Shown: positions 23,992 to 64,000, counted from the first letter of the stretch. The stretch is DNA of 64,000 bases from Candidatus Omnitrophota bacterium (GCA_028692655.1 JAQUWY010000004.1:933-64932); one strand, 5' to 3'. Notes: generated by a model from the letters alone, not told the origin. A program made the numbers and translations.

Positions 23992-24118
23992 TAGTTTTAT
24001 TTGCTCTATTAAGGTGGGCGGGACAACTCGAGGTTCAAAGTAATTACAGAGCCTAATACATTATTTGGCAATGGTTTTGTTCTTTGGCTAAGCTTCGGCT
24101 TTGCCGAAGATCATTGAC

Positions 24119-24135
24119 AAATCCCAGCGACCCCG
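24119..24135. repeat. 17-nt copy of the tRNA-Asp 3' end (AAATCCCAgCGACCCCG, 1 mismatch) 128 bp downstream of tRNA-Asp
   Basis: Direct repeat of the tRNA-Asp 3' end (the gene ends at 23991). This is the same arrangement seen at tRNA-Val and tRNA-Glu. Confidence 0.6.
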
Positions 24136-24423
24136 CCATGCTTTGCTGTTGTAAAATAATTTCATAGAAGTAAGCTTGCCCGTTGGAGCGTAGTAGTGGT
24201 TTCGTATGGTAAACCATAAAAAATTTACCCTCCGAAGCCCATCATTTTAGTTTTTCTTCTTGTAGAGTGCAGGAGGACCATTGGCTTTGTCAATTTTCCT
24301 TGTAAAATAATCCTTTGCTTTTGTTGTTCCTGAGTTCCCGGCTTTCATCAGCTATGCGAAACCCCAACGAGGATAATTTTGCACGCTCTATTATGGTAGA
24401 AGACTCGCTTATCAAGCAGGATA

Positions 24424-26247
24424 ATGATCAATATCATCAACAAGGAAGATTGTAATGGCTGTTGTGCTTGTGTTGATATCTGTGGTCAAAATGCAATTAC
24501 TCTTAAGATAGACCACGAGGGATTTTGGTATCCAGAGGTAGATAAGAGCCTTTGCATTAGCTGCGGGTTGTGTGAGAAAATCTGTCCGCAAATTCATTCA
24601 GATAAGATAAATAAGCTTAACAAAGAAAATCCTATTTGTTTTGCTGCTTATCATAGAGACAAAGGCGTTCGGTTGGATAGTACCAGTGGAGGAGTTTTTT
24701 CTGCTTTAGCAAATAAGATGTATGATGTTGGAGGTTATATCTCCGGGGCTATTTATGGCAAAGACTTTTCTGTACATCATATAGTGTCTAACAAACGCGA
24801 GGACTTGAGAAAAATAAGAAGCTCCAAATATCTTCAAAGTTCCTGCGAGGGGGTCTACAAAGAAATAAAAAGGCTTCTTGAAGAGAAAAAAAGGGTGTTG
24901 GCTTCCGGCACTCCCTGCCAAATGGCAGCCTTGCGTCTTTATTTAGAAAAGGATTATGAGAGCCTAACCACCTGTGATTTTGTTTGCCGGGGAGTTAATT
25001 CTCCAAAAGTTTTCCGTAAGTATTTGGACGCACTAGAAGAAAGGCACGGTTCCAGGGTGGTTTACGTCAAAGCAAAAGACAAGAAGCATGGGTGGAGAAG
25101 CCTGACCTTTAAGGCCGCATTCGAAAATGGCCAACTTTATTATGGAAACGGCATAGAGGACAATTTTACACGCGGCTATTTAAGAACAGGGTATTATTGC
25201 AGGCCTTCTTGCCTGGAATGCAAATTTAAAAAAATGCCGCGAATTGCTGATATTACAATCGGAGATTTTTGGGGCATTGAAAACGTGGTCCCCTCATTTG
25301 ATGATAATCTTGGTACTTCTTTAGTGATGTGTAACACGGCAAAGGGTTGTGCTGTTTTTGACGCAGTTAAAAATGAGTTACAAATACACAAAGCTACGGT
25401 AAAAGATATTGAGCAAGGAAACCCTCACCTGCGTGTTCCTATCAGCAATCCACAGACAATGCGAAAGGCTTTTTTTTCGGATCTGGAAAATATGACTTTT
25501 CCGAGAGCTGCTGCAAAGTATTTTCCCAAACCGGGACGCAAACTGGGCCATATGAAAGCAAAAATAAAAAAAACCCTTAAAGATGCACGCATTTTTTATC
25601 AAACGATGAAATTTTCGCCCAGGGCTTGGGCTCAGTTTTTCTGGATCAATTTCTTTCGAAGGAATACCGTATCCAAGTTATTAAAAATGCAGGTTATACT
25701 TCCAACACCCTATTGTGTGTTCGATATTCACCCGTCTGCTAAAATTGTTGTAAAAGGCTTAGTTGTTTTTGGGCTCAGCAAAATCCGGGGGTCTCGATTG
25801 GAGACTAGAATGCGCATAGATAAAGGAGCTCGGTTACATTGCAACGGCGGATTCACAATGTATGCTGGAGCAGATATCCAAATTTTCCCAGGGGGGGTGC
25901 TTACTTTTGAAGGGGGGCCTTATGCCGGATGCAATATTCATTGCCAGATTATCTATGCAGATAACATTCGCATCGGGAGAAGTACTTTAATTTCCAGGAA
26001 CGTTACGTTGAGGGATTATGACGCCCATTATATTATTCTAAAAGGTTACAAGGTTAAGGCCCCGATTATAATTGGAGATCATTGCTGGATTGGCGAGGGG
26101 GCTTTAATTTCCAAGGGGGTAACAATCGGAAACGGTTCAATTGTAGCTGCAAGGTCTTGGGTGACCGCCAATAATATAGCGGCAAAAACCCTTATTATGG
26201 GAAGACCGGCTATACCAATCAGGGAGAATATAGAGTGGGAAGTTTAG
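24424..26247 (+). CDS. fusion of a coenzyme F420 hydrogenase/dehydrogenase beta-subunit (FrhB)-like Fe-S protein with a C-terminal hexapeptide-repeat acyltransferase
   Basis: Two Cx2Cx2Cx3C ferredoxin motifs (CNGCCACVDIC, CISCGLCEKIC) and FrhB-like N/C domains. The last 170 aa or so show left-handed beta-helix repeats (GARLHCNGGFTMYAGADIQIFPGG...IGDHCWIGEGALISKGVTIGNGS). Confidence 0.65.
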   Translation: MINIINKEDCNGCCACVDICGQNAITLKIDHEGFWYPEVDKSLCISCGLCEKICPQIHSDKINKLNKENPICFAAYHRDKGVRLDSTSGGVFSALANKMYDVGGYISGAIYGKDFSVHHIVSNKREDLRKIRSSKYLQSSCEGVYKEIKRLLEEKKRVLASGTPCQMAALRLYLEKDYESLTTCDFVCRGVNSPKVFRKYLDALEERHGSRVVYVKAKDKKHGWRSLTFKAAFENGQLYYGNGIEDNFTRGYLRTGYYCRPSCLECKFKKMPRIADITIGDFWGIENVVPSFDDNLGTSLVMCNTAKGCAVFDAVKNELQIHKATVKDIEQGNPHLRVPISNPQTMRKAFFSDLENMTFPRAAAKYFPKPGRKLGHMKAKIKKTLKDARIFYQTMKFSPRAWAQFFWINFFRRNTVSKLLKMQVILPTPYCVFDIHPSAKIVVKGLVVFGLSKIRGSRLETRMRIDKGARLHCNGGFTMYAGADIQIFPGGVLTFEGGPYAGCNIHCQIIYADNIRIGRSTLISRNVTLRDYDAHYIILKGYKVKAPIIIGDHCWIGEGALISKGVTIGNGSIVAARSWVTANNIAAKTLIMGRPAIPIRENIEWEV

Positions 26248-27179
26248 CAAAAAATAATATAAAAAAAGAAAAAACAATTCTTAATAATGGGATTGAAATA
26301 CCGCCTATTATCCTTGGAACAGCCCATCCGTTGCACGACAAAAAACTGGCTCAAGGGAAAGGGAAAATATGCAATTGCCTGATTCGAATTTTCTATAATA
26401 AAATATACAGCAAATTTCTTGTTTTAAAACAGGTAGTAGCCATAGCCGGTGCAATAAAAATGGGTTACAGGGCCATTGACACTTCAGCTGCCTACGGAAA
26501 TGAAAAGTTTATTAAATGGGGAATTAAGCTAAGCGGCATTAAAAGAAGGGAACTATTTATTACCACAAGAGTGAGCAACCAACAACAGTGGAAGGGGCAC
26601 ATAAAAAAATCCTTGTTAGAATCAATGAGAGCGTTGGGAGTAGATTATGTGGACTTATATATGTTTCACTGGCCGGTAACAGATGTTTTTATTGCTACGT
26701 GGAGGCAGATGGAATCTGTTTATGAAGAAGGGCTGGTAAAATACATTGGTGTCGCGAATTGTCACCAACATCATTTGGAAAAGCTTTTAGCAGGAGCTTT
26801 GGTTGTGCCAGCAATTAACCAGTTTGAGATACATCCATTGATGACCCAGAAGCCGCTCATTGCCTATTGTATGTCAAAGGGAATTGCAGTTGAGGCATAC
26901 ACCCCGATAGGCCGCAATCACGAGAAGCTTATGCGTAATGATATTTTGAAAAAATTATCCAAAAAATACAATAAAACAATTCCCCAAATTATTCTAAGGT
27001 GGCATTATCAAAACAGAATAATATCAGTTCCACGCTCCACTAGCTTTAAACACTTGAAAGAAAATCTTTGCATTTTTAATTTTGAACTTACCCCCGAGGA
27101 AATGAAAAAGATAGATTCAATAAATACTGATTTAAGATTAAGGTATAATCCAGACGATTGCGATTTTAACAAGCTATAG
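26235..27179 (+). CDS. aldo/keto reductase family oxidoreductase
   Basis: Typical AKR N-terminus (ILNNGIEIPPIILGT) and MGYRAIDTSAAYGNE. Confidence 0.8.
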   Translation: MGSLAKNNIKKEKTILNNGIEIPPIILGTAHPLHDKKLAQGKGKICNCLIRIFYNKIYSKFLVLKQVVAIAGAIKMGYRAIDTSAAYGNEKFIKWGIKLSGIKRRELFITTRVSNQQQWKGHIKKSLLESMRALGVDYVDLYMFHWPVTDVFIATWRQMESVYEEGLVKYIGVANCHQHHLEKLLAGALVVPAINQFEIHPLMTQKPLIAYCMSKGIAVEAYTPIGRNHEKLMRNDILKKLSKKYNKTIPQIILRWHYQNRIISVPRSTSFKHLKENLCIFNFELTPEEMKKIDSINTDLRLRYNPDDCDFNKL

Positions 27180-27348
27180 AGCCATAGGGTGTCTGGCTTT
27201 CTCAAGGTAGGTTTGTAACATGTGTGTTAAAGAAGGAGTCCAAAATCTGATTAGGATTATAGCAAGAAGCATAAAACTTGTTATATGTTCCATAATTAAA
27301 ATCTCTACCCTGCATTTGAAGAAAGGGAAGAACATAACGAGATATTAC

Positions 27349-27897
27349 ATGTATGAACACTTGTCGAAAGTGCTGATGGAGGCGAGTAGGGAAAACTCGG
27401 GCAACTCAATACTTTCTATAAGCCATTCACAAGGGTTAGCTGAGCTACTAAGTATTAAAAACCCAAAAATCACTCCAGCTAATTTTCCACAGTATAACAC
27501 GCTTGATTTGCCATTCAAAGATAATGAATTTGATTGGGTGGTTAGCGATCAAGTTTTAGAACATATCGAAGGCAACCCACAGAAGGCAATAGATGAATCT
27601 TGCAGGGTTTTAAAGCCCGGTGGAGTAGCTGTCATTACTACATGTTTTATTAACACAATACATGGATGTCCCAAGGATTTTTGGCGTTTTACTCCAGAGG
27701 CATTGCAGTTGTTGTGTAAAGAGTTTACAGAAATTATAGATATGGGAGGCTGGGGTAACCCATACATTTGGCTGCTTATCTGGCTAGGGATGCGGCATTT
27801 TCCAACCCCGCATGCAAAATGGCACCCATTACACATACTAGCAACTATCAAAAAAAGAAGCTGCCCAATTGTAACATGGGTTGTAGCTAAAAAATAA
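27349..27897 (+). CDS. class I SAM-dependent methyltransferase (Methyltransf_11-like)
   Basis: DWVVSDQVLEHIEGNPQKAIDESCRVLKPGGVAVIT. I place the start at the ATG at 27349; the track ORF starts at 27220. Confidence 0.6.
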   Translation: MYEHLSKVLMEASRENSGNSILSISHSQGLAELLSIKNPKITPANFPQYNTLDLPFKDNEFDWVVSDQVLEHIEGNPQKAIDESCRVLKPGGVAVITTCFINTIHGCPKDFWRFTPEALQLLCKEFTEIIDMGGWGNPYIWLLIWLGMRHFPTPHAKWHPLHILATIKKRSCPIVTWVVAKK

Positions 27898-27975: not shown

Positions 27976-29118
27976 ATGAAACCCTTCTCAAAACCAATTT
28001 ATGTTACACGTCCGTTGTTGCCGGATAGAAAAGCCATACATCGTAAACTTGATGAAATATTAGATGCCCAGTGGTTAACCAACCGAGGCCCACAACATAA
28101 ACTTTTCGAGAAAGAAATCACGCGATACTTAAAAGTTCCGTATGTAAGTTTAGTAAATAATGGCACCTCAGCCCTACAATTAGCTTGCCGCGTTTTACGG
28201 CTGACAGGGGAGGTAATAACAACACCTTTTACTTTTCCTGCCACACCACACGCGCTTTATTGGAATAATATAAAACCGGTTTTTTGCGATATCGAAGAGG
28301 CCAGTTGGAATATCGATCCATCCAAGATAGAAGCGCTAATCACTCCGGCTACAAGTGCTATACTTCCTGTACATGTGTTTGGCAACCCCTGTGACACCAA
28401 AGCTATACAGAAAATAGCAGATAAATATAGGCTCAAAGTTGTTTACGACGCAGCACATTGTTTTGGGGTAAAAGTTGGAGAAAAGGGTATAGGAAATTTT
28501 GGCGATGCCTCGGCTTTTAGCTTTCATGCGACAAAAGTATTCAACACCCTTGAGGGAGGAGCCATAACCTGCAAAGACCCAGCTATAAAGGAAAGGATAG
28601 ACTTGGCTAAGAATTTCGGTTTCCAGGGAGAAAATACAATAGTTGCTCCAGGCATAAATGCCAAAATGGATGAATTTCAAGCGGCTTTTGGTTTGGTATG
28701 CCTAAAAATTTTAGCCAGGGAGATAAAAAAAAGAAAAAAATTAACCGCAATATATCAGCAAAGATTAAGTAAAATAGAAGGAATTGATTTTGCAACTAAC
28801 AATAACAGAACGGTTGAGCATAATTATTATAATTTTGTAATCCGTGTGGATGAAGGAGAGTTTGGCAAAAGCAGAGACCAATTATATGAGGAGCTTAAAA
28901 AATACAATATATTTACACGCAAGTATTTTTATCCCCTTTGTAGCCAATTCCAGTGCTACAGAGATAGCTCATCAGTTTTCCCGATAAATCTTCCGGTAGC
29001 AGGAAGGGTGTCTAAAGAGGTCTTAAGTCTTCCCCTGTACGGAGGATTAGCTGAGAGCTGTGTAAGTAAAATATGCGACATCGTGGAAGCATTAAGGAAA
29101 TCTAATAATCAACTGTAG
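27976..29118 (+). CDS. DegT/DnrJ/EryC1/StrS-family PLP-dependent sugar aminotransferase
   Basis: 380 aa with the characteristic layout (DAAHCFG, SFHATKVFNTLEGG) of nucleotide-sugar aminotransferases. Confidence 0.85.
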   Translation: MKPFSKPIYVTRPLLPDRKAIHRKLDEILDAQWLTNRGPQHKLFEKEITRYLKVPYVSLVNNGTSALQLACRVLRLTGEVITTPFTFPATPHALYWNNIKPVFCDIEEASWNIDPSKIEALITPATSAILPVHVFGNPCDTKAIQKIADKYRLKVVYDAAHCFGVKVGEKGIGNFGDASAFSFHATKVFNTLEGGAITCKDPAIKERIDLAKNFGFQGENTIVAPGINAKMDEFQAAFGLVCLKILAREIKKRKKLTAIYQQRLSKIEGIDFATNNNRTVEHNYYNFVIRVDEGEFGKSRDQLYEELKKYNIFTRKYFYPLCSQFQCYRDSSSVFPINLPVAGRVSKEVLSLPLYGGLAESCVSKICDIVEALRKSNNQL

Positions 29119-29302: not shown

Positions 29303-30040
29303 ATGGGCAAGCACAAGCGGGTTATCGTAATAGTAGACCACATAGAGTTATTTAAAGAATTTGTTGGTATTATACAACGATTAAAAAATAAGGTGTCATT
29401 TTCTTTTTTTTGCAGCCCAAAAAATAGAAATTTCAAGTTAAAAAAGTTCAAAACTTTTGAGGTAAAAAGCTTAGATGTAAACCAATCTCGGAAATGGGTT
29501 ATCGACAATTGCGATTTAGTTATATCGTTGCACTCAAAACAAATCTTTCCAAGTAAGCTAATAGCCAAGAAAAAGTGCGTCAATGTACACCCTGGCTTCT
29601 TGCCTTACAACAGGGGCTGGTACCCACATATTTTTTCTATTATAAACAAAAAACCTACCGGCGCGACAATACATGAGATGACCAATATATTAGATTTCGG
29701 CCCAATAATTGATAGTCAGGAAATCAAAATAAAACCCGATGATACTTCTGCGTCTTTATATAAAAAGATTTTCAAGGTGGAAGTGAAACTCATAAAAAAA
29801 AATATAGAAAAAATCATTGAGGGGGATTATACAACTGTTATGCCGAATACAAAAGGCAATATAAATTATAAAAAAGACTATTATAAACTTTTACCTATTG
29901 ACAGAAATAAAAAAATTAAAGCCGAAAAAATAATAAATAAGATCAGGGCTTTAACACATGGCGAATGCAGGGGAGCTTATTTTATTGATAAAAATAAGGA
30001 AAAGTTTGAAATTAAAGTGAGCTTACGCAGGGTTAAATAA
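29303..30040 (+). CDS. sugar N-formyltransferase-like protein (formyl_transf N-domain)
   Basis: VNVHPGFLPYNRGWYPHIF matches the HxSLLPxxxG motif of Fmt/WlaRD/VioF-type N-formyltransferases. It follows an aminotransferase. Confidence 0.65.
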   Translation: MGKHKRVIVIVDHIELFKEFVGIIQRLKNKVSFSFFCSPKNRNFKLKKFKTFEVKSLDVNQSRKWVIDNCDLVISLHSKQIFPSKLIAKKKCVNVHPGFLPYNRGWYPHIFSIINKKPTGATIHEMTNILDFGPIIDSQEIKIKPDDTSASLYKKIFKVEVKLIKKNIEKIIEGDYTTVMPNTKGNINYKKDYYKLLPIDRNKKIKAEKIINKIRALTHGECRGAYFIDKNKEKFEIKVSLRRVK

Positions 30041-30203: not shown

Positions 30204-32228
30204 ATGCATAATAATAAATATGTAATAGGAATCGGCTGTATAGGAAGCGGCGTGGGCCAGGCAATTATTGATTCATTGCGGCTGTCCAGGCTACCTCTCA
30301 GAACAGTCGGGCTGGGAACTAATCCGTTTGCTTATGGAGCCTATGATTGCGATACTTACGACTACGTTAAGAGTATATACGATAAAGGATTTATAGATAA
30401 TTTAATTTCTAAGTGCCTTCAGCATAAAATAGATTTTATTATTCCCGGCATGGAAGATGAAGTTCTGTTGTGTGCTAAGAATGCCCATAAATTTAAGGAT
30501 GCCAAAATAAAGGCAATAGTTTCTGATGAAGCGTTAATATCTATTTGCGTAGATAAAGAGAAAATGGGTAAAGAGCTAAGTAAAATTTGCGATGTATTTG
30601 TTAAGAATTACAATAAAGAAACGATAGAACAGGATATTAAAAACAGAGAAGTTTCTTTTCCTCTTATTGCTAAGCCGCGTGCAGGATACGCATCCAAAGG
30701 GATTGAAATTGTCAGAAGTTTAGAAGATTTAGCAAGGATAACCGATGACCACATCATACAAGAGCTTGCTATCCCGGCAGAGGACGATGTAAACTACCAG
30801 TTCTACATGAATCATATAGAAAAAAAACAAAATCCCCAAGTTTCAGAAATTTCTATTCAGCTTGTTTATAGTCCCGAAGGCCAACTAATGGGGCGCATGT
30901 CTTCATATAATAAATTAAAAAATGGTGTACCTATAGAAATAGTGCCATGCAATAATGAATATATCTGGAGCATTGTCGATCAATTAATCCCCACTTTGCT
31001 CAAATTAGGGATGAAGGGGCCGTTAAATATTCAAGGAAGGCTTACGCGGCAAGGTTTTAAAATCTTTGAAATTAACCCCAGGTTTACTGGAATTACCGGA
31101 TTGCGCGCGCTAATGGGTTTTAACGAAGTGGAGGCTTGTGTAAAAGAATGGCTCGGCATCGATAAAGGGAGAAATTTATTAACCCTAAACTATAACCGGT
31201 TTGGAATAAGGCAAGTAGCTGACAAGTCTATTTCTGTTGAAAGAAATAAAGAGGTGGAATCACTTTCCGTGAAATTAAACGGAAGAAATATCAAGGAGAA
31301 AAAAACAGTTCTTATTACCGGCGCTTGTGGGTATCTCGGGCAAAATCTTATAGCTAAATTATGCAAAGAAAAAATGTTTGAGGTGTGGGCGTTTGATCTT
31401 GATAAAGAAAAAATAAAAATGGTCCACGGGGATAGAACTAAGAATAAGTTTAATAAAGAGGACATTAGTTCCGGAATAATTCAATTAGGGAATGTAGATA
31501 TTTTACTGCATCTGGGGTTTACACGACCATATGGCTTGAGCCAGCAAATCGCCGATAGCCTTAGATTTACAAACGAGTTGTTCTCAAGAGCTGCCTTGCA
31601 CCATATACCAGCTATCATCAATATATCTACACAGAGTGTTTATGGAACAGAAGGCACCTTATCGTTGACAGAAAATACTCCTGTTAACCCTCAGACAATT
31701 TATGCCCAGGCCAAATATGCTACAGAACTATTTCTAGAATCTGCAAAAACAAATTTAAAAACATTATGTTATAGCTCTATAAGGCTTGGGACTCTTGCTG
31801 GAGGAGCAAACGGACTGGTTGAAGTAGATTTTTTGTCGAAGATTGCCAGAAGAGCTCTCAAAGGCGAAACTATTTACATTGTAAGCGGTACACAACGAAC
31901 AGAACGAATCGATATCAGGGACGCAATAGAGGCTATTGTTGCAATGCTAAAAGTAAACCATAGAATATGGAGGCCGGTGTATAATTTAGGTTCAGGCAAA
32001 ACATATAGCCTAAAAGAAATAGCAGAAAAAACAATCAATATCAGTTTGAGATATAACGGGGCAAGAAAATCAAAATTGACTATCGAAAATAAAGAGGCCG
32101 ATATACAGCCAGCTATAGATAGTTCGCTTTTTTATAAGGATATGAATTGGATGCCAAAATTCAGCATTGAAGAGAGCATCGAATCGCTGTTTATTTATTG
32201 GCGGAAATCAGGGTTCCCACAAACATGA
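30204..32228 (+). CDS. fusion protein: N-terminal ATP-grasp ligase domain plus C-terminal NAD-dependent epimerase/dehydratase (SDR) domain
   Basis: The ATP-grasp core (LIAKPRAGYASKGIEIV...FEINPRFTG) occupies about residues 1-340. The Rossmann motif VLITGACGYLGQNL starts the C-terminal 300 aa or so. Confidence 0.7.
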   Translation: MHNNKYVIGIGCIGSGVGQAIIDSLRLSRLPLRTVGLGTNPFAYGAYDCDTYDYVKSIYDKGFIDNLISKCLQHKIDFIIPGMEDEVLLCAKNAHKFKDAKIKAIVSDEALISICVDKEKMGKELSKICDVFVKNYNKETIEQDIKNREVSFPLIAKPRAGYASKGIEIVRSLEDLARITDDHIIQELAIPAEDDVNYQFYMNHIEKKQNPQVSEISIQLVYSPEGQLMGRMSSYNKLKNGVPIEIVPCNNEYIWSIVDQLIPTLLKLGMKGPLNIQGRLTRQGFKIFEINPRFTGITGLRALMGFNEVEACVKEWLGIDKGRNLLTLNYNRFGIRQVADKSISVERNKEVESLSVKLNGRNIKEKKTVLITGACGYLGQNLIAKLCKEKMFEVWAFDLDKEKIKMVHGDRTKNKFNKEDISSGIIQLGNVDILLHLGFTRPYGLSQQIADSLRFTNELFSRAALHHIPAIINISTQSVYGTEGTLSLTENTPVNPQTIYAQAKYATELFLESAKTNLKTLCYSSIRLGTLAGGANGLVEVDFLSKIARRALKGETIYIVSGTQRTERIDIRDAIEAIVAMLKVNHRIWRPVYNLGSGKTYSLKEIAEKTINISLRYNGARKSKLTIENKEADIQPAIDSSLFYKDMNWMPKFSIEESIESLFIYWRKSGFPQT

Positions 32229-53272: not shown

Positions 53273-53274
53273 AT

Positions 53275-55260: not shown

Positions 55261-56123
55261 ATCAATGCAGCTCTGATTATCCGCTCGGGATAATATGCCG
55301 GGTACTAAATGTTTCCAAGAGCGGTTATTATCAATGGAAAACCAGGCCTAAAAGCCAACTCCGGATAGACAATGATAAATTGCTCATTGAAATACGCAGG
55401 GTATTCTGGGAGAATGACCGTGATTACGGCAGCCCCCGGGTATGGAATCAGCTGCGCAATAAAGAACACATACCCTGTTCGGTAAACCGTATCGCCCGGC
55501 TTATGCGTATTGACAACCTGGTTGCCGTGCACAAACGTAAATTCCGGGTGACCACTAATTCTAAGCATGATTACCCGGTATGGTCTAATTTGCTGAACCG
55601 TAACTTTATGGTTACCCGGCCCAATAGAGTCTGGGTATCGGATATAACCTATATCTGGACTCATGAAGGCTGGCTGTACTTGGCGGCGATCATGGATTTG
55701 TATTCCCGGGGAATCATCGGCCTGGCTATGGATAAAACTATTGCCGACACTTTGGTTATGCAAGCTATGAAGCAGGCAATTCTCAGGCGCAATCCGGATG
55801 AAGGGTTGATTCTTCACTCTGACCGAGGCAGCCAATATGCCGGTAACGATTTTAAGGCGTTACTTTCCGGCCATAAGTTCGTTGGCAGCATGAGCCGTAA
55901 AGGCGACTGTTACGATAATGCGGCGGCAGAGAGCTTCTTCCATACGCTTAAGGTAGAGCTTATACACCGGATGAAATTCAGGACCCGGGAAGAAGCAAAG
56001 AGAAAAATCTTTGAGTACGTGGAAATGTACTACAACACTAAAAGGGCGCATTCAACGCTGGGTTATCTCAGCCCTTTTGAATTTGAAAATCGGGTTTCTC
56101 AATCTTTATTAACTGTCCACTAA
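55212..56123 (+). CDS. IS3-family transposase OrfB (DDE integrase core), expressed by a -1 frameshift from OrfA
   Basis: The -1 frame opens at the A7G slippery run (55206-55213). It has rve-domain motifs (VWVSDITYI, HSDRGSQYA, CYDNAAAESFF). Confidence 0.8.
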   Translation, partial: SSRHIFKRKSERFRFIDQCSSDYPLGIICRVLNVSKSGYYQWKTRPKSQLRIDNDKLLIEIRRVFWENDRDYGSPRVWNQLRNKEHIPCSVNRIARLMRIDNLVAVHKRKFRVTTNSKHDYPVWSNLLNRNFMVTRPNRVWVSDITYIWTHEGWLYLAAIMDLYSRGIIGLAMDKTIADTLVMQAMKQAILRRNPDEGLILHSDRGSQYAGNDFKALLSGHKFVGSMSRKGDCYDNAAAESFFHTLKVELIHRMKFRTREEAKRKIFEYVEMYYNTKRAHSTLGYLSPFEFENRVSQSLLTVH

Positions 56124-56137
56124 AGAGGGGAAGGTCA

Positions 56138-56458
56138 CCTTGGCAGTGGTGGGTGCATGAAATCCCTTATGATTATTTTAGATATACGCCGTATGGGTTA
56201 AGATACATGTTTGAAAAAGCTGGATTTAAAGATATAAGTATAGAGGCTTTATCTGGTTTTTTTGTTACGTCGATTCTTAAAATAAATTATTTTAGTGCTA
56301 GATTTATAAAGGGGCCCAAACCTTTGAGATGGCTAATTTTATATTTACTTGTCCCCATATGGACTATTTGCCAGTTTTTGGCGCCATATCTTGATAAATT
56401 CGATAAAAATTGGGATGCAGAGGCTGTGGGATATATTGTATTGGCATGGAAAAGGTAG
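56138..56458 (+). pseudogene. 3' portion of the IS-interrupted class I methyltransferase
   Basis: HEIPYDYFRYTPYGLRYMFEKAGF is the typical C-terminal segment of Methyltransf_11 proteins. It is in frame with 54463..54873 once the IS and one CCT are removed. Confidence 0.7.
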
Positions 56459-56500: not shown

Positions 56501-57703
56501 TTGCATCAGATTTTTCAGGTAAAAGCCAAGTCACCAAACGATTATTGTATGCTTAAAAGGGGTATTTTCACTAAAAAAATTAATTGGATTATAGCAAATA
56601 TAGCAGACGCAGTTGGTTTTAGCCTATTGGATATCTGGAAGCGTGTATCTAAGTGCAGAAATCCCGAAATGACCAGTATAAAAAAAATTTTGGTCATAAA
56701 AACAGATGGAATCGGAGATATTTTGATTTCTCTGGGTTTAACTAGACTGATCAAGAAACTTTATGCCGATTCCAAGGTAGATTATTTAATCCGGCCCAAA
56801 TCAAGCGGAATAGCTAAAATGACACCAGATATTAATAAGGAAATCCAAAGTTGCTCGATATGGCAGGATATAGCCAATGTTTTGCGAATGAGGAAATATA
56901 AGTATGATCTTGTTATTAGTCCCAAGCCGCAAGGATATATTTTTGATCACATGTTAGCGGTTTTTGTGCAGGGTAAACACAGGGTAGGCTATGCTGCAAA
57001 AGGCGGGGGATTTCTCTTAACGGAGGTTGTCCCCTGGCAAAAAGAAAAGAGAATAGACTTATTGATGGCCGACATCGCGCGACTGCTGGGCAGTGCCGGA
57101 AAAAATGAAGGGATTGCGTTATCTATTCCTAGTGAGGGCAGTATTTTTATAGATAAACTTTTTAAAGCCAGTAATATTTCAGATAATGATTTGAAAATTG
57201 GAATAAATATTTTTGCCGGGCATCCGTTTATTTGGCCATTAGGTAGGTTCCAGGAAGTATCCGAAAAACTAATCAAAAATCATAATGCCAAAATTATATT
57301 CATCGGGGATAATGATCATAAGGAAAAAGTCGAAAAAATAATGAGGAAAATATTGTTTCCTACTATCTCTTTTGTTGGTAAGACCAGCATTGTACAGCTA
57401 GCAGCTTTGATTAAGAAACTAGATATTTTAATTACAGTAGACTCATGCCCTAGGCACATTGCCAATGCTGTTTCTACACCCGCAGTCGTATTAAGAAATG
57501 GGGCAAACTCAAATGTCATCTGGGGGGAGTACTGCGAAAATGAGCACTTAATTTTTCATAACGTACCGTGTTCACCATGCGGGAAAAAAATCTGCCCGGA
57601 AGGCAAAAGGATATGTATGACGAGCATTACCGTCGAAGAAGTCTTGGCAGGTATAAATAAGATAATTCATAAAGTCAAAGAGAAAAAAGATATTAATCTT
57701 TAA
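56501..57703 (+). CDS. family 9 glycosyltransferase (ADP-heptose:LPS heptosyltransferase-like)
   Basis: KILVIKTDGIGD and the GT9 two-Rossmann layout. About 55 aa of N-terminal extension are shared with its neighbour. Confidence 0.7.
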   Translation: MHQIFQVKAKSPNDYCMLKRGIFTKKINWIIANIADAVGFSLLDIWKRVSKCRNPEMTSIKKILVIKTDGIGDILISLGLTRLIKKLYADSKVDYLIRPKSSGIAKMTPDINKEIQSCSIWQDIANVLRMRKYKYDLVISPKPQGYIFDHMLAVFVQGKHRVGYAAKGGGFLLTEVVPWQKEKRIDLLMADIARLLGSAGKNEGIALSIPSEGSIFIDKLFKASNISDNDLKIGINIFAGHPFIWPLGRFQEVSEKLIKNHNAKIIFIGDNDHKEKVEKIMRKILFPTISFVGKTSIVQLAALIKKLDILITVDSCPRHIANAVSTPAVVLRNGANSNVIWGEYCENEHLIFHNVPCSPCGKKICPEGKRICMTSITVEEVLAGINKIIHKVKEKKDINL

Positions 57704-57757: not shown

Positions 57758-58984
57758 ATGATTAAAATACATAACCAAGTTAATAAAACAGTAGCTTTGG
57801 TTTTTGATTGTATTGGTAAAATAATATTTTATTCTGGGAGTTTTTTTGGCTTGTGGGGCATAAAAGCAAATAATCCAGCAGAGATTAATCCACGAAAGAT
57901 TCTTGTTGTAGAAGAAGAACCATTGGGGGACGTGATCACCTCAACGCCGGTTTTCATTGCCTTAAAGCATAAATTTCGTTTTGCTCGTATATCGGTTATA
58001 ACAAACGTTACCGGTAGCAGAATTTTAAATAATAATCCTTATATTGATGAAATCATAGTCGAAGAATGCCCATGGACATATTCGAAACAAATAAATTTAT
58101 TACAGATGGTTAATCATCTACGATATTTGAAACACTATTTAAAATTAATCTACATATTAAAGAAAGAAAGATTTGATTTAGGTATTGAGTTAAGAGGAGA
58201 CATCCGTAATATTATCCTCTTCCTTTTTTTGCCAAATATAAAATATACCTTAAGCTACGATAGAACGGGAGGAGCATATTTACTAAACGAGGCGGTACCT
58301 TTCGATATATCTCAACATATTATAAAAAGAAAAACTAATTTGTTAAAACGAATCGGTATTGAAAAAGCAGACACTAAGATGCAAATATACTACTCCCCCG
58401 AAGATTTTAAAAAACGGGAGGATATCTTTAGGCGTTATGGAATGAAAGAAAATGATTTTTTTACTATTATTCATCCGGGCGCAAGTCAAAAAAATAGATG
58501 GTGGTTTCCAGAACGATATGTTGAAGTGGCTAATTTTGTAAGAAAAAAATACGGAGGTTGTATCATATTGACAGGGACAAAGGAAGAACTGTCTTTAACG
58601 GAAAAGATCTCTAATTTAATGAAGGTTAACGACAAGACTGTAAATCTTTGCGCTAAGCTAACGATTGCTGAAGTTGCCGCGTTATTAGAAAAGGCTGGTT
58701 TGCTTATTTGTCCAGATACAGGCATAATGCATCTGGCTTGCGCTTTTTCAACTCCCACTGTTGCCATTTTTGGTCCGGGTGATATTAATATCTCAGGCCC
58801 GCATCAAAGAAATGTTTGCATTGTACAAAAAAAATGTTCTTGCGAGAGACCGTGTTATTTGCGTAACTGCAAAAGGAAAATAAATGGCATAAGCGCTTGC
58901 ATGGGCATGATAGGTGTTGATGAAGTGATTGGTGCTATAACTTGTCTATTGGAAAATACTAAAAAGAACACGGGAACCGGGTGA
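57758..58984 (+). CDS. family 9 glycosyltransferase (heptosyltransferase-like), second copy
   Basis: KILVVEEEPLGDVITS...IIHPGASQKNRWW...CPDTGIMHLA. Paralogue of the upstream GT9. Confidence 0.7.
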   Translation: MIKIHNQVNKTVALVFDCIGKIIFYSGSFFGLWGIKANNPAEINPRKILVVEEEPLGDVITSTPVFIALKHKFRFARISVITNVTGSRILNNNPYIDEIIVEECPWTYSKQINLLQMVNHLRYLKHYLKLIYILKKERFDLGIELRGDIRNIILFLFLPNIKYTLSYDRTGGAYLLNEAVPFDISQHIIKRKTNLLKRIGIEKADTKMQIYYSPEDFKKREDIFRRYGMKENDFFTIIHPGASQKNRWWFPERYVEVANFVRKKYGGCIILTGTKEELSLTEKISNLMKVNDKTVNLCAKLTIAEVAALLEKAGLLICPDTGIMHLACAFSTPTVAIFGPGDINISGPHQRNVCIVQKKCSCERPCYLRNCKRKINGISACMGMIGVDEVIGAITCLLENTKKNTGTG

Positions 58985-59001: not shown

Positions 59002-59363
59002 AAAAGCTATCTTCTGAGAATAGATGCTATAATTAACGATGGGAGATTAAGGGAAGATGTTATCTTTACCGAGTATGTTCCTTCAGGAAATTTGCCCGCG
59101 TTTTATACCAACGCGAGCGTGTTAGTTTGCCCAACGTTATTTGAAGGTTTTGGGTTGCTTTATGCGGAACCAAAGCCTGGCGTGTGCCTGGTAGGTGCTT
59201 CTAATACGAGTTCGATTTTGGAATTAGTCAATCCCGCGCGATATTAGCTAATTTATGCAGTATTAAGGAGATGGTTTCGGCGACGCAGAGAATCGTTGCA
59301 GACAGTGAAATATGGTTGAAACTAATAAGAAAAAAGTTGTGCCGGGCAGGATCATTATCTTAG
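59002..59363 (+). pseudogene. C-terminal remnant of a family 4 glycosyltransferase (frameshifted, no N-terminal domain)
   Basis: ...DVIFTEYVPSGNLPAFYTNASVLVCPTLFEGFGLLYAEPKPGVCLVGASNTSSILELV shows the GT4 C-terminal motif region (PS.yEGFGl...SNtsSipE). It continues in another frame to about 59363 and lacks a start or N-terminal Rossmann domain. Confidence 0.5.
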
Positions 59364-59402: not shown

Positions 59403-60224
59403 ATGGTCTTAAATCGAAGGATTAAAATAGCGTATTTCTGGATATTTAAAAAAAAACATAATGTAAGAATAAAAGAACTTTTTTATTTTATCCGAAAGCC
59501 GCGGGTTGAAAGAATAGGTTTGAGGTTTATAAAAAACATCAATTATTCAAATGACTTTAAAATAGTTTCATTTAAGTCAATGCGCAATGAGTTATATTTA
59601 CCTTACAGTTATAGACTAAACGAATTATATAGAATCTGCGCCGAAACTTTTGATACAAGTGACTGGCATCATTATGAAAATGGAGTAGGTAAGGTTAATG
59701 AAAACGATATTGTGGTTGATGCCGGTTCTGCTGAGGGGTTGTTTTCTTTGTCAATAGTCGAAAGATGTAAAAAAGTTTTTGTTGTTGAGCCGAATAGAAA
59801 TTTTATTCGTGCCCTGAAAAAAACTTTTGAGCAGTTTAATCCGCAAAAAGTGGAGCTGTTTAATGCTGCTTTGGGTGATAATAACGTTTTGGCGAAAGCA
59901 ATAGGAAAAGGAATCAGCGGCAGCGTTGTTGAATCAAAAAAAGGCGATATAAAAATAACCACACTTGATAATTTATTGAAAGATAAAGGCAAAATAACCT
60001 ACATAAAAGCTGATTTGGAAGGTTGGGAGATGAAAATGTTAATCGGGGCTAAAGGTATTATTTCAAAGTATAAACCCAAAATTGTGATTACCGCATACCA
60101 TCGCGATAACGAGCAAGGAAAAATGATAAATTTTTTAAAACAAATCGTTCCAGAATATAAATACAGGGTTAGAGGGATTTCGCAGTATTCTGGCAGACCT
60201 ATTCTAGTTTGGTTTTGGGTATAA
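59403..60224 (+). CDS. FkbM-family methyltransferase
   Basis: VVDAGSAEGLFSLSIVERCKKVFVVEPNRNF matches the Methyltransf_21/FkbM signature. Confidence 0.7.
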   Translation: MVLNRRIKIAYFWIFKKKHNVRIKELFYFIRKPRVERIGLRFIKNINYSNDFKIVSFKSMRNELYLPYSYRLNELYRICAETFDTSDWHHYENGVGKVNENDIVVDAGSAEGLFSLSIVERCKKVFVVEPNRNFIRALKKTFEQFNPQKVELFNAALGDNNVLAKAIGKGISGSVVESKKGDIKITTLDNLLKDKGKITYIKADLEGWEMKMLIGAKGIISKYKPKIVITAYHRDNEQGKMINFLKQIVPEYKYRVRGISQYSGRPILVWFWV

Positions 60225-60248: not shown

Positions 60249-61628
60249 ATGAAAAAAATAATACATACAACAATTTTTTTAATAATAGGGGTATTAATAA
60301 TCTATTTAATAAGCAAAGATTCCGAATCAAGGGCTTCCTGGATTGTTTCTGGTTTATTGACGGTTGTCTTACTTGCTATTTTGCCCGTTAAGTATTTTCT
60401 TTATTTTTTTATAGGCTCTCTTTTCTTTGACCGGTATATCTGGGAGTTTTTAAATTTTAGCATCAGGCCGAGCCAAATCATGGGAATTCTTTTATTTCTA
60501 AAATGGTTATTTGCAGTGAAGCATAAACGCAGTATCTTTAGTAACATTCTATTTATTCCGCTCGTCCTTTTTATAGTTGCAAGTTTAATTTCCAGCATAT
60601 TCAATTCAGGAGACTTGTCCAGAAATTTGCAGCTCGTCCTTCTTTCTGTCGTATTCTTTTGTCCTATTTTCCCAGTGGTAAGCTTGCTTGGTAATCAGAA
60701 AAATTACGAAAAAATTTTAAAATTCTATATTTTATTAGGAGCAGCCATGGCTGTCTATGGATTGATTGCCTACATTTTATTTGTCATGTTTAATATTAAT
60801 ATAGGCGTAATAAATTCTGAATTGGGAGGCAGGATAGTTGGAACACAGCATAATGCAGGAGATCATTTCGGATTGCAGATGATGTTTTTTGTAATTATAA
60901 TGTTCAACTATCTCCATGTGCGTTCTATATTTATTTCAACCAGAAAAATAAAATTATTGCTTTTTATATTTATCCCCGCGATGATGCTATCCTTTAAAAG
61001 GATAGCTTTTATAGGTGTAATTATTTCGTTCCTTTCAAGTTGGCTGGTTTTATGTTCTCAGCATAAAATGATGGTTTTTGCGAAAAAATTTCTGGGATTA
61101 ATAACCGTAGGTTCCATATTAGTTATTTTATTTAATTTATTAACTGTTAAAGAAAACGTTATTATAGATAGAGAAATAGTAACCCGAAGGTATTCTAAAG
61201 ATATAAATGTTCAAACACATTCTATGCAGAGTCGTTTAAACAATTGGGAAATTGGCCTGGAGATATACAAGGAGCATCCCTTAATAGGGAATGGCCCCGG
61301 AACTGCCGAAGGCGGGTTTTGGGTATCAAATGTATTGATACGTACGATGGCCGATACAGGAATCCTAGGGTTGCTTGCTGTAATATTCTTGCTGGTAAGG
61401 ATTTTTATGTTAGGTTTCAGGGCAGTGCGTTTTTCCAACAAAGTTAATGCTGCAGCCATTAATGTTCATGTAGTAGGAATGTTATCGGCATTCATTTCTC
61501 TGGTTTTTGTTAATATGGTAGACGACCAGTTTTTATTGGGCATGTTCTGGTTCCATATCAGTTTAATTGTAGCGACATTTAATTTAGCTATAAAATTGGG
61601 AACACAGACTGAAAGGCAGATAGTATAG
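60249..61628 (+). CDS. O-antigen ligase/polymerase family (Wzy_C domain) polytopic membrane protein
   Basis: At least 10 predicted TM helices with a large loop containing HPLIGNGPG typical of WaaL/PglL/Wzy_C proteins. Confidence 0.65.
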   Translation: MKKIIHTTIFLIIGVLIIYLISKDSESRASWIVSGLLTVVLLAILPVKYFLYFFIGSLFFDRYIWEFLNFSIRPSQIMGILLFLKWLFAVKHKRSIFSNILFIPLVLFIVASLISSIFNSGDLSRNLQLVLLSVVFFCPIFPVVSLLGNQKNYEKILKFYILLGAAMAVYGLIAYILFVMFNINIGVINSELGGRIVGTQHNAGDHFGLQMMFFVIIMFNYLHVRSIFISTRKIKLLLFIFIPAMMLSFKRIAFIGVIISFLSSWLVLCSQHKMMVFAKKFLGLITVGSILVILFNLLTVKENVIIDREIVTRRYSKDINVQTHSMQSRLNNWEIGLEIYKEHPLIGNGPGTAEGGFWVSNVLIRTMADTGILGLLAVIFLLVRIFMLGFRAVRFSNKVNAAAINVHVVGMLSAFISLVFVNMVDDQFLLGMFWFHISLIVATFNLAIKLGTQTERQIV

Positions 61629-61815: not shown

Positions 61816-62973
61816 ATGACTTTTAAAACCGATGTGATTAAATTGCTGGTTAATTATTTCTATAAACCTATTTCACCAATTGAAGTCATATTGTATTTAA
61901 CGAATAAGTGTAATCTTAAATGCAAATTCTGTGATATAGGGATAGCAAATATTAAAAAAGAACCTCATCCCTATAGGGAATTGTCTCTTTTGCAATTAGA
62001 TAAGATTGTGAAAGCGATGGTTGCATTAAAGGTAGAAAAAGCTTATATTACCGGTGGAGAACCATTCTTAGCGGAAAATTTATGGTACTTTCTGGATTTA
62101 TGTTGTCGCAACTCAAGGCAAATCAGTGGAATAACTACAAATGGTAATACTTTGAATGCCTTAACAAAAGAGCAGGTAGACATTTTAAATTACGCTAAAA
62201 CCCGGCGCATCATTATTTCTGTAGATTATGCTTCTGCGGATAAACACGATGCCTTCAGGGGTAGAGTTGGGCTTTTTAGAGATATAGAAACATTTCTGGT
62301 TTCTGAAAAGTCAGACAGAATAAAAAGTAATTACTGGATTTCAACAGTAATCAGTAAAGATAATTATAAGGAGTTGCCGGAGTTAATCAAATGGGCTGCT
62401 ACCATTAATAAAATACGACATATAAATTTTCAACCGGTATGCGTCGAGCCTATATTTGTAGATTACAAAAGGTGCAAGACAAGCCAAGATGCTTTATATG
62501 CAAGCGCAGCATTTTTGAATGAACTGGAAACATATATTTCCGCCGCACTAAAAACAGCAGAAGATTACGGCATGTCCACTAGCCTGCCTTTTCTTAAGTT
62601 ATGGATAAAAGAATATTTCAAATACGCAAAAACTGAGGAGTACTTTTTTAAGAAGGTAATGAAAGGCTTTATTTGCTCTAGGCCGTATAATTATCTTTCT
62701 GTTAATTATAACGGGGACATTCTGGCGTGTACTCACATAGGGCCTACAGGGAGTATTGATAAAGGCGATATCATTTCTGTCTGGAGACAATCCGCAGAAA
62801 AGTATAGAAAAAGCTTTAAAAAAGGCGTATATTTTGAGAAATGTAAAAGCTGTTTCTGTGACTTCGGGTCTAATTATAGGGCTTCGCTATTGTATGAGCC
62901 GATGAAGAATATCAAACATGTTTTTGCTGTGATTCCGTATTATATAAATAGACTTTTGAAGAAAACCAATTAA
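61816..62973 (+). CDS. radical SAM / SPASM-like domain protein
   Basis: Cx3Cx2C (CNLKCKFC) at residues 32-39, ITGGEPFL, TTNGN, and C-terminal cysteines (C...CTHIGPTG...CKSCFCDFG). Confidence 0.7.
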   Translation: MTFKTDVIKLLVNYFYKPISPIEVILYLTNKCNLKCKFCDIGIANIKKEPHPYRELSLLQLDKIVKAMVALKVEKAYITGGEPFLAENLWYFLDLCCRNSRQISGITTNGNTLNALTKEQVDILNYAKTRRIIISVDYASADKHDAFRGRVGLFRDIETFLVSEKSDRIKSNYWISTVISKDNYKELPELIKWAATINKIRHINFQPVCVEPIFVDYKRCKTSQDALYASAAFLNELETYISAALKTAEDYGMSTSLPFLKLWIKEYFKYAKTEEYFFKKVMKGFICSRPYNYLSVNYNGDILACTHIGPTGSIDKGDIISVWRQSAEKYRKSFKKGVYFEKCKSCFCDFGSNYRASLLYEPMKNIKHVFAVIPYYINRLLKKTN

Positions 62974-62996
62974 TTCATTAACAAGCCAAAGAAAAT

Positions 62997-64000
62997 ATGA
63001 AGATATGTTTTATTGTTCTCAAAGGGATGCCTTTTGGCGGGGGGATAGAAAAATATACTGAAGAATTAGGCTCAAGGCTTGTTCAAAAAGGCCATGAAAT
63101 CGTTGTTTATGCTATGCGCCATTATGGCGCTAAAGACGGAATTTATAAAGGAATGAAAATTAAAACAGTTCCTACTTTGAGAACCAAAAATCTTGAGAAG
63201 ATTGTAGCCTCTCTCATGTCTACTATTTACCAATATTCGGAGAAGAAAGTAGATATTATCCATTTTCATGCCTTTGGCCCGGCAATATTTAATCTTATAC
63301 CCAGGCTGGCAGGAATAAAAGTCGTAGTACAAGGGCATGGTTTAGAGTGGCGTAGATCAAGATGGAATCCCGGAATAAAGTTGGCTTTAAAGCTGACGGA
63401 GTTTTTTTCGGTAAAGTTCCCTAACCGAATAACTGTTGTTTCTCGTGTCCAACAAAAATATTTGCGTGAAAGATACAATGCAGACAGCATATATATACCT
63501 ACAGGTGTTAATTTTCCGCAACCGGAAGAGCCGGAATTAATAAAACAGTATGGCCTCAAAGGTAATGATTATATTCTTTTTGCGGCTCGGCTTGTTAAAG
63601 AAAAAGGCGCACATCATTTGATCGAGGCCTACAAGCGCCTTAATACCGACAAGAAGCTTGTTATCTCCGGCGACATAGAAAATGAGAGAGAATATAAAAA
63701 GTCTCTCTATAAGCTGAGCGGGAAGAACAAGGATATTATTTTTACCGGATTTATAACAGGAAAAGTTCTACGGGAAGTATTTTCAAATTGTTATATGTTT
63801 GTGTTACCTTCTGAAATAGAAGGTTTATCTACAACTCTTCTTGAAGCTATGAGTTATGGAAATTACTGTCTGGCCAGCGATATACCGGAAAATCTCGAAG
63901 CATTGGGTAGTTTGGGGCACTCTTTCAAGTGTGGGGATGTAGATGATTTGAAAAATAAAATGCAGCACCTAATAGACGATAGAAGCATTATAGAAACGGA
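62997..64000 (+). CDS. family 4 (group 1) glycosyltransferase, 5' partial (continues beyond the window)
   Basis: ATG at 62997 and an ORF open to the window end. GT4 motifs are visible (FAARLVKEKG...LPSEIEGLSTTLLEAMSYGNYCLASDIPEN). Absent from the ORF track because there is no stop. Confidence 0.8.
   Translation, partial: MKICFIVLKGMPFGGGIEKYTEELGSRLVQKGHEIVVYAMRHYGAKDGIYKGMKIKTVPTLRTKNLEKIVASLMSTIYQYSEKKVDIIHFHAFGPAIFNLIPRLAGIKVVVQGHGLEWRRSRWNPGIKLALKLTEFFSVKFPNRITVVSRVQQKYLRERYNADSIYIPTGVNFPQPEEPELIKQYGLKGNDYILFAARLVKEKGAHHLIEAYKRLNTDKKLVISGDIENEREYKKSLYKLSGKNKDIIFTGFITGKVLREVFSNCYMFVLPSEIEGLSTTLLEAMSYGNYCLASDIPENLEALGSLGHSFKCGDVDDLKNKMQHLIDDRSIIET

Follow-up and report, generated by a model that had tools for sequence, protein, structure and literature searches.

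The question raised by this locus is what a long block of genes that opens at a tRNA cluster, about 8 kb from the replication origin, would build in an uncultured bacterium, and whether it arrived there as a mobile element. The window is a 64,000-nucleotide stretch of DNA from a Candidatus Omnitrophota bacterium (GCA_028692655.1 JAQUWY010000004.1:933-64932), read on one strand, and the locus fills positions 23,992 to 64,000. Omnitrophota have not been cultured; most are ultra-small, some may depend on a host, and to our knowledge there is no experimental knowledge of their cell surface. The locus is quite probably part of a surface-polysaccharide supercluster of at least 50 kb, lying in a variable slot whose left edge is the 3' end of tRNA-Asp. 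Within it, one module of four genes is predicted to produce a 2-deoxy acetamido sugar and a second module a formamido sugar.

Genes were called from open reading frames (ORFs) and from Pfam, NCBIfam and PDB searches. The region from 23992 to 64000 holds 32 genes, 30 of them glycan-related, a count that includes the two ORFs of an IS3-family insertion sequence and one gene cut by the window end; the ORF total is 34 if two split genes are counted as separate ORFs. The initial annotation had described a surface-glycan biosynthesis region of at least 35 genes, starting directly after a tRNA-Cys/Leu/Val/Asp cluster and running past the window end. The gene families support the surface-glycan assignment, ARAGORN and Rfam place the four tRNA genes just ahead of the cluster, and the locus runs on for at least 11 kb in further contigs from this population (L010, L011). 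The number of genes is slightly smaller than described. Nearly all of the enzymes listed there also reappeared in our searches, but only one WbuX-like protein is present, scoring below its cut-off, and the TylF-like and WecF-like matches are weak, the latter being full-length with no Pfam match. A GT34-like glycosyltransferase, of a mainly eukaryotic family, was missing from that list. An Rfam search of the window returned no RNA family besides tRNAs.

Beyond the window end, L010 and L011 encode a GT4 glycosyltransferase, a radical S-adenosylmethionine (SAM)/SPASM protein, an FAD protein, GGDEF, TPR and PilZ proteins, two Wza-like proteins and one Wzc-like protein. The Poly_export/SLBB proteins and the Wzz/GNVR/AAA_31 protein, encoded 7-10 kb downstream of the window (precomputed Pfam annotation), represent the Wza (OPX) and Wzc (PCP-2a) components of Wzy-dependent capsule or exopolysaccharide (EPS) systems. 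GGDEF and PilZ genes directly adjoin the Wza-like and Wzc-like genes (L010 10749-16680 / L011 4943-11678, 7-16 kb past the window end), an arrangement that suggests cyclic di-GMP (c-di-GMP) control of polysaccharide export.

Matching assemblies are the NCBI metagenome-assembled genome (MAG) GCA_028715335.1 (contigs JAQUSC010000032, 12 and 36) and the Logan assemblies SRR22315505 and SRR22315506. They independently back the junction between tRNA-Asp and the cluster, as MAG contig 32 extends to window position 24448 and a Logan contig begins at 23912. The MAG is in three contigs here, with breaks at the start of the first cluster gene (24448-24481) and inside the IS3 element, and the window therefore joins parts that are unlinked in the public MAG.

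The 2-deoxy acetamido module consists of four tightly packed genes (37230-41417), three of which overlap. The first two encode an NDP-hexose 2,3-dehydratase and a sugar C-3 ketoreductase whose sole strong solved relative is KijD10; the genes overlap by 11 nucleotides and form the enzyme pair typical of 2,6-dideoxyhexose pathways. The initial annotation was right to see natural-product-like chemistry in this locus, as the step catalyzed by this pair is best known from antibiotic deoxysugars. An aminotransferase of the DegT family and an N-acetyltransferase complete the module. The acetyltransferase is closest to PerB and also matches VioB, both of which act on 4-amino sugars. Judged from these families, the pathway would run from C-2 deoxygenation by the dehydratase and ketoreductase, through C-4 transamination, to N-acetylation, and its predicted product is dTDP-4-acetamido-2,4,6-trideoxyhexose. 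The adjacent WecF-like transferase would probably transfer this sugar.

The deoxygenation step is not unique to this locus. A metagenome scan with the 2,3-dehydratase returned 47 contigs (28-63% identity), and on 34 of them a KijD10-like gene is an immediate or near neighbor; a DegT gene (45-64% identity) follows on five. Such dehydratase/ketoreductase contigs number in the dozens and come from marine, freshwater and gut metagenomes, in polysaccharide-type contexts. The 124 ORFs flanking the dehydratase homologues on 11 long contigs are mainly Epimerase/RmlB-type (13), RmlD (10), GT4 (10), DegT (8), Wzx-type (5 and 4), GT2 (4) and RmlA-type (3) matches, and neither polyketide synthases (PKS) nor nonribosomal peptide synthetases (NRPS) are among the 25 families matched by most members. 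These flanking genes identify the 2,3-dehydratase/3-ketoreductase module as a recurrent part of environmental polysaccharide loci. Our literature search found no report linking 2,3-dehydratases to O-antigens. It is tempting to speculate, with somewhat less than even confidence, that EvaA/KijD10-type chemistry places a true 2-deoxy sugar, 4-acetamido-2,4,6-trideoxyhexose, in a surface glycan here, and that 2,6-dideoxy (amino) sugars are widespread but overlooked in environmental surface glycans.

The formamido module follows a pathway that is already characterized (WbtJ/VioF/Rv3404c type). Its DegT-family aminotransferase keeps the catalytic lysine in the motif SFHATK, as expected of a pyridoxal phosphate-dependent aminotransferase, and its C-4 regiochemistry is taken from its best relative, DesI, the C-4 aminotransferase that makes dTDP-4-amino-4,6-dideoxyglucose. 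The formyltransferase matches the WbtJ, Rv3404c and VioF structures at 1e-45 to 1e-53 (4NV1 6.5e-53, VioF 7e-47). RmlA and RmlB encoded elsewhere would make dTDP-4-keto-6-deoxyglucose and feed both modules; C-4 transamination followed by N-formylation would then give the predicted product, dTDP-4-formamido-4,6-dideoxyglucose (Qui4NFo).

Table 1. Features of the locus and its left boundary, grouped by predicted role (window coordinates).
Feature	Position	Strand	Evidence
NDP-hexose 2,3-dehydratase (EvaA/TylX3 type)	37230..38654	+	PF03559 6.6e-152, 502.8 bits, two domains
Sugar C-3 ketoreductase, KijD10-like, GFO/IDH/MocA	38644..39633	+	PDB 3RBV 3e-61, next 8e-26
DegT-family C-4 aminotransferase, DesI-like, catalytic Lys present	39620..40705	+	Pfam, PDB, Lys motif
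PglD_N + hexapeptide N-acetyltransferase (PerB/PglB/VioB-like)	40734..41417	+	PDB PerB 2e-32, VioB 3.5e-14
Half-type ABC exporter (transmembrane plus nucleotide-binding domain, TMD-NBD), HepA/MsbA/PglK-like; candidate flippase for lipid-linked glycan	41779..43623	+	Pfam, NCBIfam
WecF-like (GT56) glycosyltransferase, distant; candidate for 4-acetamido sugar transfer	43840..44973	+	NF002756 E 2e-11, 43.6 bits, cut-off 457
DegT-family sugar C-4 aminotransferase, DesI-like	27976..29118	+	PF01041 1.6e-102; DesI 2PO3 1.3e-77
dTDP-4-amino-4,6-dideoxyglucose N-formyltransferase (WbtJ/VioF/Rv3404c type)	29303..30040	+	NF005755 249.5 bits, cut-off 238
GT2 glycosyltransferase	46226..47188	+	Pfam, NCBIfam
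GT34-like (GMA12/MNN10) glycosyltransferase	52085..53272	+	PF05637 9e-17
GT4 glycosyltransferase (best NCBIfam match HpsO, below cut-off)	53245..54423	+	Pfam, NCBIfam
GT9-family glycosyltransferase a	56501..57703	+	PF01075 2.2e-20
GT9-family glycosyltransferase b	57758..58984	+	PF01075 3.9e-33
Wzy_C-domain membrane protein (WaaL-type ligase, Wzy-type polymerase or PglL-type O-oligosaccharyltransferase)	60249..61628	+	PF04932 43.4 bits, cut-off 31.7
GT4 glycosyltransferase, cut by window end (366 aa in MAG contig, L010 7508-8608)	62997..64000	+	MAG contig
2x[4Fe-4S] FrhB-like flavo/Fe-S oxidoreductase fused to hexapeptide (WbbJ/WcaF-like) O-acetyltransferase	24424..26247	+	Pfam, NCBIfam
FrhB-like 2x[4Fe-4S] oxidoreductase, stand-alone	49788..50975	+	Pfam, NCBIfam, PDB
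Polysaccharide pyruvyl transferase 1	44963..46207	+	PF04230 1.1e-31
Polysaccharide pyruvyl transferase 2	47202..48338	+	PF04230 2.7e-43
WbuX-like PP-loop N-acetyl-sugar amidotransferase domain (residues 2-275) + further C-terminal region	48390..49787	+	TIGR03573 133 bits, cut-off 203; no Pfam
ATP-grasp (PylC/CPS-like) fused to short-chain dehydrogenase/reductase (SDR) epimerase/dehydratase	30204..32228	+	Pfam, NCBIfam, PDB
Aldo/keto reductase	26235..27179	+	PF00248 1.6e-44
Class I SAM methyltransferase (Methyltransf_11), intact	27220..27897	+	Pfam
Methyltransf_24 / weakly TylF-like methyltransferase	32480..33193	-	Methyltransf_24 3.2e-9; TylF 17.8 bits, cut-off 23
FkbM-family methyltransferase	59403..60224	+	TIGR01444 61 bits, cut-off 37.7
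O-carbamoyltransferase (NodU/TobZ/GdmN/NovN family)	33476..35230	-	Pfam; PDB ~1e-49; NodU 112 bits, below cut-off
Radical SAM protein, weak STM4011-family similarity	50997..52040	+	Pfam, NCBIfam
Radical SAM/SPASM (twitch-like) protein	61816..62973	+	Pfam, NCBIfam
IS3-family insertion sequence, intact: orfA (HTH_Tnp_1), orfB (rve)	54874..56137	+	Pfam, sequence ends
Methyltransf_11 gene split by IS3 (pieces 54463-54873, 56141-56458)	54463..56458	+	Pfam; joined ORF
Radical SAM/SPASM gene, inactivated by 1-nt loss in poly-A run (A7, 36183-36189)	35882..36933	+	Pfam
GT4 glycosyltransferase remnant (central Glycos_transf_1, EX7E region)	~59026..59235	+	29.6 bits, cut-off 26.4
tRNA-Cys(GCA), Leu(TAA), Val(GAC), Asp(GTC) cluster, left boundary of variable region	22625..23992	+	ARAGORN, Rfam
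Direct repeat of tRNA-Asp 3' end (17/18 nt)	24118..24135	+	Pattern search, 0.01 expected by chance

The left 22 kb of the window is the neighborhood of the replication origin, with gyrA, gyrB, dnaN and dnaA on the minus strand, yidC, parA, parB, ndk, yicC and gmk on the plus strand, and a turning point of cumulative GC skew about 15 kb into the window; rpmH, yidD and rpoZ are called for this neighborhood on the matching MAG contig. Against this core the locus is more AT-rich, as the initial annotation had judged: GC content is 36.5% (23993-64000) versus 42.8% (1-22250), and mean GC at third codon positions is 35% versus 43% (Mann-Whitney p ~1e-6), the baseline being only 18 conserved housekeeping genes over about 22 kb.

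Gene order breaks at tRNA-Asp. All genomes recovered in a scan with Gmk were Candidatus Omnitrophota MAGs, with a top protein identity of 86%. The order gmk-tRNA(Cys/Leu/Val/Asp) is kept in six other Omnitrophota MAGs, and the sequence 3' of tRNA-Asp differs among them. One continues with a trypsin-TPR protein, a DUF6515 protein, a TPR protein and then GDP-mannose-type sugar genes (L005), another with cdaA, mscS and trehalose genes (L007). In the closest relative (L003, about 85% nucleotide identity over the core) unrelated AT-rich sequence follows, and the final base of tRNA-Asp is exactly where similarity ceases. What follows tRNA-Asp is thus not conserved across relatives, and the region combines atypical composition with absence from L003, L005 and L007, as a genomic island would, in comparison with a small baseline and distant relatives.

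Such features could point to a classical genomic island, that is, a mobile element carrying glycan genes that integrated site-specifically at tRNA-Asp and was recently acquired from another phylum. We consider this unlikely. The tRNA adjacency and the synteny break fit it, as does the GC difference of 6 points, but downstream of the window low GC (33-38%) continues over 11 kb or more, through the GGDEF, TPR and PilZ genes, and low GC is common in polysaccharide loci that are not mobile islands. No cluster ORF carries an integrase or recombinase domain in Pfam, leaving the IS3 transposase as the sole mobility gene. The direct repeat of the tRNA-Asp 3' end would be the expected scar of integration, but the repeat and its tRNA copy (23974-23991) enclose just 126 bp, ahead of any glycan gene, and no further copy of the shorter tRNA-Asp pattern was found in the window, L010 or L011. 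Longer patterns of 32 and 22 nucleotides matched only the tRNA itself in the same sequences; no attachment (att) repeat bracketing the locus was found within the window and these downstream contigs. The repeat is present in L009 and L070 and absent from L003. A foreign origin is also favored by the ATP-grasp-SDR fusion, which shares 62-67% identity with full-length proteins, several of them named Bacteroidota, whereas Gmk shares only 53-57% among more distant Omnitrophota relatives; this hints at cross-phylum exchange of that gene. Low GC is usual for such loci, the AT-rich stretch takes in non-glycan genes as well, and few core genes serve as the baseline; these data therefore do not establish horizontal acquisition or site-specific integration at the tRNA. 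The region is best described as a variable and probably recombination-prone surface-glycan locus, and of the horizontally acquired island first proposed, the variability, the distinct composition and the gene decay stand.

The tRNA spacers contain other repeats. The last 17-18 nucleotides of tRNA-Val occur twice more (23598-23615 and 23752-23769), each time closing a 154-bp tandem unit (region 23445-23775), and an invariant TCATTGA stands before every tRNA-Val or tRNA-Asp 3'-end copy. One Val unit fewer than in the window is present in MAG contig 32 and in L003. The spacer upstream of tRNA-Val (23190-23345) holds a tRNA-Val 5'-end-like fragment (gggcgattagct) and, in degenerate form, the 3' portion of the 154-bp unit (ttcgaccaa...ggtctcattga). 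The 3'-end copies resemble att-type scars or members of a small repeat family targeting tRNA 3' ends. In L003 a 102-aa ORF (11974-12282) lies between tRNA-Val and tRNA-Asp and has a GIY-YIG-like N-terminus by eye (YALQN..GKSYIGCTSN..RLKEHN); it is absent from the window. L005 encodes a 738-aa GDP-mannose 4,6-dehydratase (17829-20045) whose enzyme domain is divided by a LAGLIDADG-matching insert that looks like an intein.

Gene decay within the locus takes three forms, all of which the initial annotation had named and our searches confirmed as recent decay and mobility. First, the IS3 element has every hallmark of its family: two ORFs with an A7 slippery site for -1 frameshifting between them, a DDE (rve) transposase, TG...CA ends within imperfect terminal inverted repeats (TGAYCTTCCCC...GTGGACA) and a 3-bp CCT target duplication. 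Without it, the two Methyltransf_11 pieces form an uninterrupted 242-aa ORF. The GC content of the element is 43-47%, core-like and unlike its host cluster, and the MAG contigs break inside it, which together suggest a recently inserted, multi-copy resident. Second, adding one A to the A7 run of the frameshifted radical SAM/SPASM gene restores a 350-aa ORF. The frameshift is identical in three assemblies (the NCBI MAG and both Logan assemblies), and an assembly error is therefore unlikely. Third, the GT4 remnant aligns with positions 64-133 of Glycos_transf_1; it was found by reading frame translations and then Pfam. A tblastn search of all cluster proteins against the intergenic gaps detected no remnant, and none was found in the plus-strand frames of the gaps 35231-35881 and 41418-41778. 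All three features show that genes here are still being inactivated, as is typical where diversifying selection acts on surface-antigen loci.

The GT2, GT4, GT34-like and GT9 enzymes would build a lipid-linked oligosaccharide, the ABC protein would flip it, and the Wzy_C protein would ligate or polymerize it. Where the finished glycan would be attached is a matter on which the genes give mixed signs. Two GT9 proteins flanking the Wzy_C protein in the Pfam results would fit lipopolysaccharide (LPS). The best NCBIfam matches of the ABC protein (HepA) and a GT4 protein (HpsO), the pyruvyl and carbamoyl transferases and the downstream GGDEF-TPR-PilZ-Wza-Wza-Wzc genes would fit EPS or capsule.

Several observations weigh against a surface polysaccharide of the predicted composition. 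The acceptor may be lipid A-core, capsule/EPS or protein. Neither the window nor the next 11 kb yielded an initiating phosphoglycosyl transferase or Wzx, and processing genes of the Wzx/Wzy/Wzz or Wzm/Wzt kind were likewise not found in 23992-64000 and those 11 kb, where a half-type ABC exporter alone was seen. RmlA and RmlB were not found in this range either, and the start of both sugar pathways is assumed. The GT9, ABC exporter, WbuX-like and WecF-like proteins all score below curated equivalog cut-offs; the GT9 proteins reach 73 and 115 bits against a Pfam cut-off of 22 but fall below every NCBIfam heptosyltransferase cut-off (WaaC/WaaF/WaaQ), and the ABC protein scores 485 bits with the HepA family, 397 with MsbA and 222 with PglK, each below its own cut-off. 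The Wzy_C protein has no NCBIfam match. The regio- and stereochemistry of the aminotransferases is drawn from their best PDB relatives, and two of the genes, one for a radical SAM protein and one for a methyltransferase, are inactive.

Of the possible acceptors, protein deserves separate mention. If the genes formed a general O-glycosylation system, the Wzy_C protein would act as an oligosaccharyltransferase of the PglL/PilO type and the ABC protein as a flippase resembling PglK, with the glycan placed on pili, S-layer or other proteins. The Wzy_C domain is common to WaaL and PglL-type enzymes and does not separate ligase, polymerase and O-oligosaccharyltransferase. It is flanked here by two GT9 genes of LPS-core type. 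The PglK match of the ABC protein and the PglI, PglH and PglJ matches among the GT2 and GT4 proteins point the same way as the PglD_N domain of the acetyltransferase, which also matches the Neisseria pilin-glycosylation protein 4M98 (4.7e-22), but all Pgl matches are far below their cut-offs. Wza/Wzc export genes follow, and pyruvylation and carbamoylation are typical of polysaccharides. Protein O-glycosylation is therefore distinctly improbable, more so than the mobile island. Least probable by far is a cluster for a glycosylated small molecule such as a glycolipid or deoxysugar antibiotic, for although the best-characterized relatives of the 2,3-dehydratase and of the KijD10-like, TobZ/GdmN/NovN-like, FkbM-/TylF-like and radical SAM proteins belong to antibiotic pathways, 50 kb contain no PKS, NRPS, terpene or aminocyclitol core genes but six to eight glycosyltransferase genes (one cut by the window end) with a dead remnant, a Wzy_C protein, Wza/Wzc and pyruvyl transferases, and homologous dehydratase modules lie in polysaccharide contexts.

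In the surface polysaccharide that we favor, the pyruvyl transferases (with FrhB-like redox partners), the carbamoyl-, acetyl- and methyltransferases and the WbuX-like amidotransferase would decorate the glycan. The methyltransferase genes are four distinct ones, namely the intact and the IS3-split Methyltransf_11 genes, Methyltransf_24 (the same gene as the weak TylF-like match) and FkbM. Three radical SAM proteins are encoded, one of them inactive. The two FrhB-like proteins share 39% identity over 366 aa. The stand-alone protein has a great many bacterial relatives (over 7,800 matches at E <=1e-10 among 8,000 candidates scored), with named family members from Clostridium, Desulfobacula and Balneolaceae. 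In three of four contexts inspected, the FrhB-like gene adjoins a pyruvyl-transferase gene in a polysaccharide locus, with overlapping frames in two. The FrhB-like Fe-S/flavin protein found beside pyruvyl transferases may carry out a redox step in decorating the polysaccharide. Literature linking FrhB-like proteins to pyruvylation was not found, the sole trace being one 'coenzyme F420 hydrogenase' gene in a Klebsiella cps survey. In the core region, a 421-aa protein (5618-6883) matches the CofD family at 4.6e-111. We rejected it as a hint of F420 biosynthesis, since the Pfam family also covers YvcK-type proteins (beside RapZ and WhiA in L067); it is probably of YvcK type and so gives no evidence for F420 use by the FrhB-like proteins. 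The ATP-grasp-SDR fusion is a conserved family of about 670 aa, with full-length homologues at 50-67% identity in Bacteroidota, Chloroherpeton and Sedimentisphaerales. Like the 2-deoxy module and the FrhB-like/pyruvyl-transferase pair, it recurs in polysaccharide loci of other bacteria, and none of the three is unique to this locus. We know of no characterized glycan product for any of them and found none in the searchable literature.

The locus yields a concrete prediction of Omnitrophota surface chemistry, in which formamido and 2-deoxy-acetamido sugars would carry pyruvyl, carbamoyl, methyl and acetimidoyl-type groups. The locus further indicates that the surface-glycan region of these bacteria is plastic. 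The 2,3-dehydratase/3-ketoreductase and FrhB-like/pyruvyl-transferase pairs, widespread in environmental polysaccharide loci, are good biochemical targets.

How far does the locus resemble known systems? The formamido module resembles the dTDP-Qui4NFo pathway of Providencia alcalifaciens O30 (VioA/VioF), Francisella tularensis (WbtJ) and Rv3404c, sharing a DesI/VioA-like C-4 aminotransferase followed by a formyltransferase that passes its equivalog cut-off. It differs in that RmlA/RmlB are not adjacent and in that the neighboring ATP-grasp-SDR, aldo/keto reductase, methyltransferase and carbamoyltransferase genes suggest further tailoring. The claim that the locus matches no textbook pathway is thus half true: the formamido module is characterized, and the other modules are widespread in polysaccharide loci.

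The 2-deoxy acetamido module resembles two systems. In enterobacterial common antigen (ECA), the aminotransferase WecE, the acetyltransferase WecD and the GT56 transferase WecF have established roles, and the Fuc4NAc branch shares with our module the conversion of a 4-keto to a 4-amino and a 4-acetamido sugar, as well as the WecF-like and flippase genes alongside. Here, in contrast, a C-2 deoxygenation step is inserted, the acetyltransferase is of the left-handed beta-helix (LbH) type rather than GNAT, the flippase candidate is an ABC protein rather than Wzx, and the similarity to WecF is distant. The actinomycete antibiotic 2,6-dideoxyhexose pathway (EvaA/TylX3 and KijD10/SpnN, then SpnR/DesI-type enzymes) uses the same families in the same order, with the strong KijD10 match. 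Unlike that pathway, the module has an Omnitrophota host, a polysaccharide-assembly context and no aglycone pathway, and its amine would be N-acetylated by a PerB/VioB-type enzyme, not methylated.

Bacterial genomes commonly contain variable polysaccharide cassettes as a standard feature. Hypervariable regions of this kind have already been reported for Omnitrophota genomes (bioRxiv 10.64898/2026.06.07.730766), and a 2023 survey of Omnitrophota does not discuss LPS or surface glycans. The locus shares with hypervariable LPS/O-antigen and capsule/EPS clusters, including the Omnitrophota cassettes, a low GC content, dense co-oriented genes for sugar nucleotides, glycosyltransferases, modification and export, an insertion sequence, pseudogenes and remnants, and a lack of synteny with relatives. 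It differs from them in that no Wzx, Wzz-type O-antigen chain regulator or initiating transferase is seen, in that LPS-like GT9 and Wzy_C proteins are combined with EPS-like HepA-like ABC, Wza/Wzc and c-di-GMP genes, and in its unusually large set of modifying enzymes. It is a chemically rich example of a well-known and expected type of locus, notable mainly for its predicted 2-deoxy amino sugar module.

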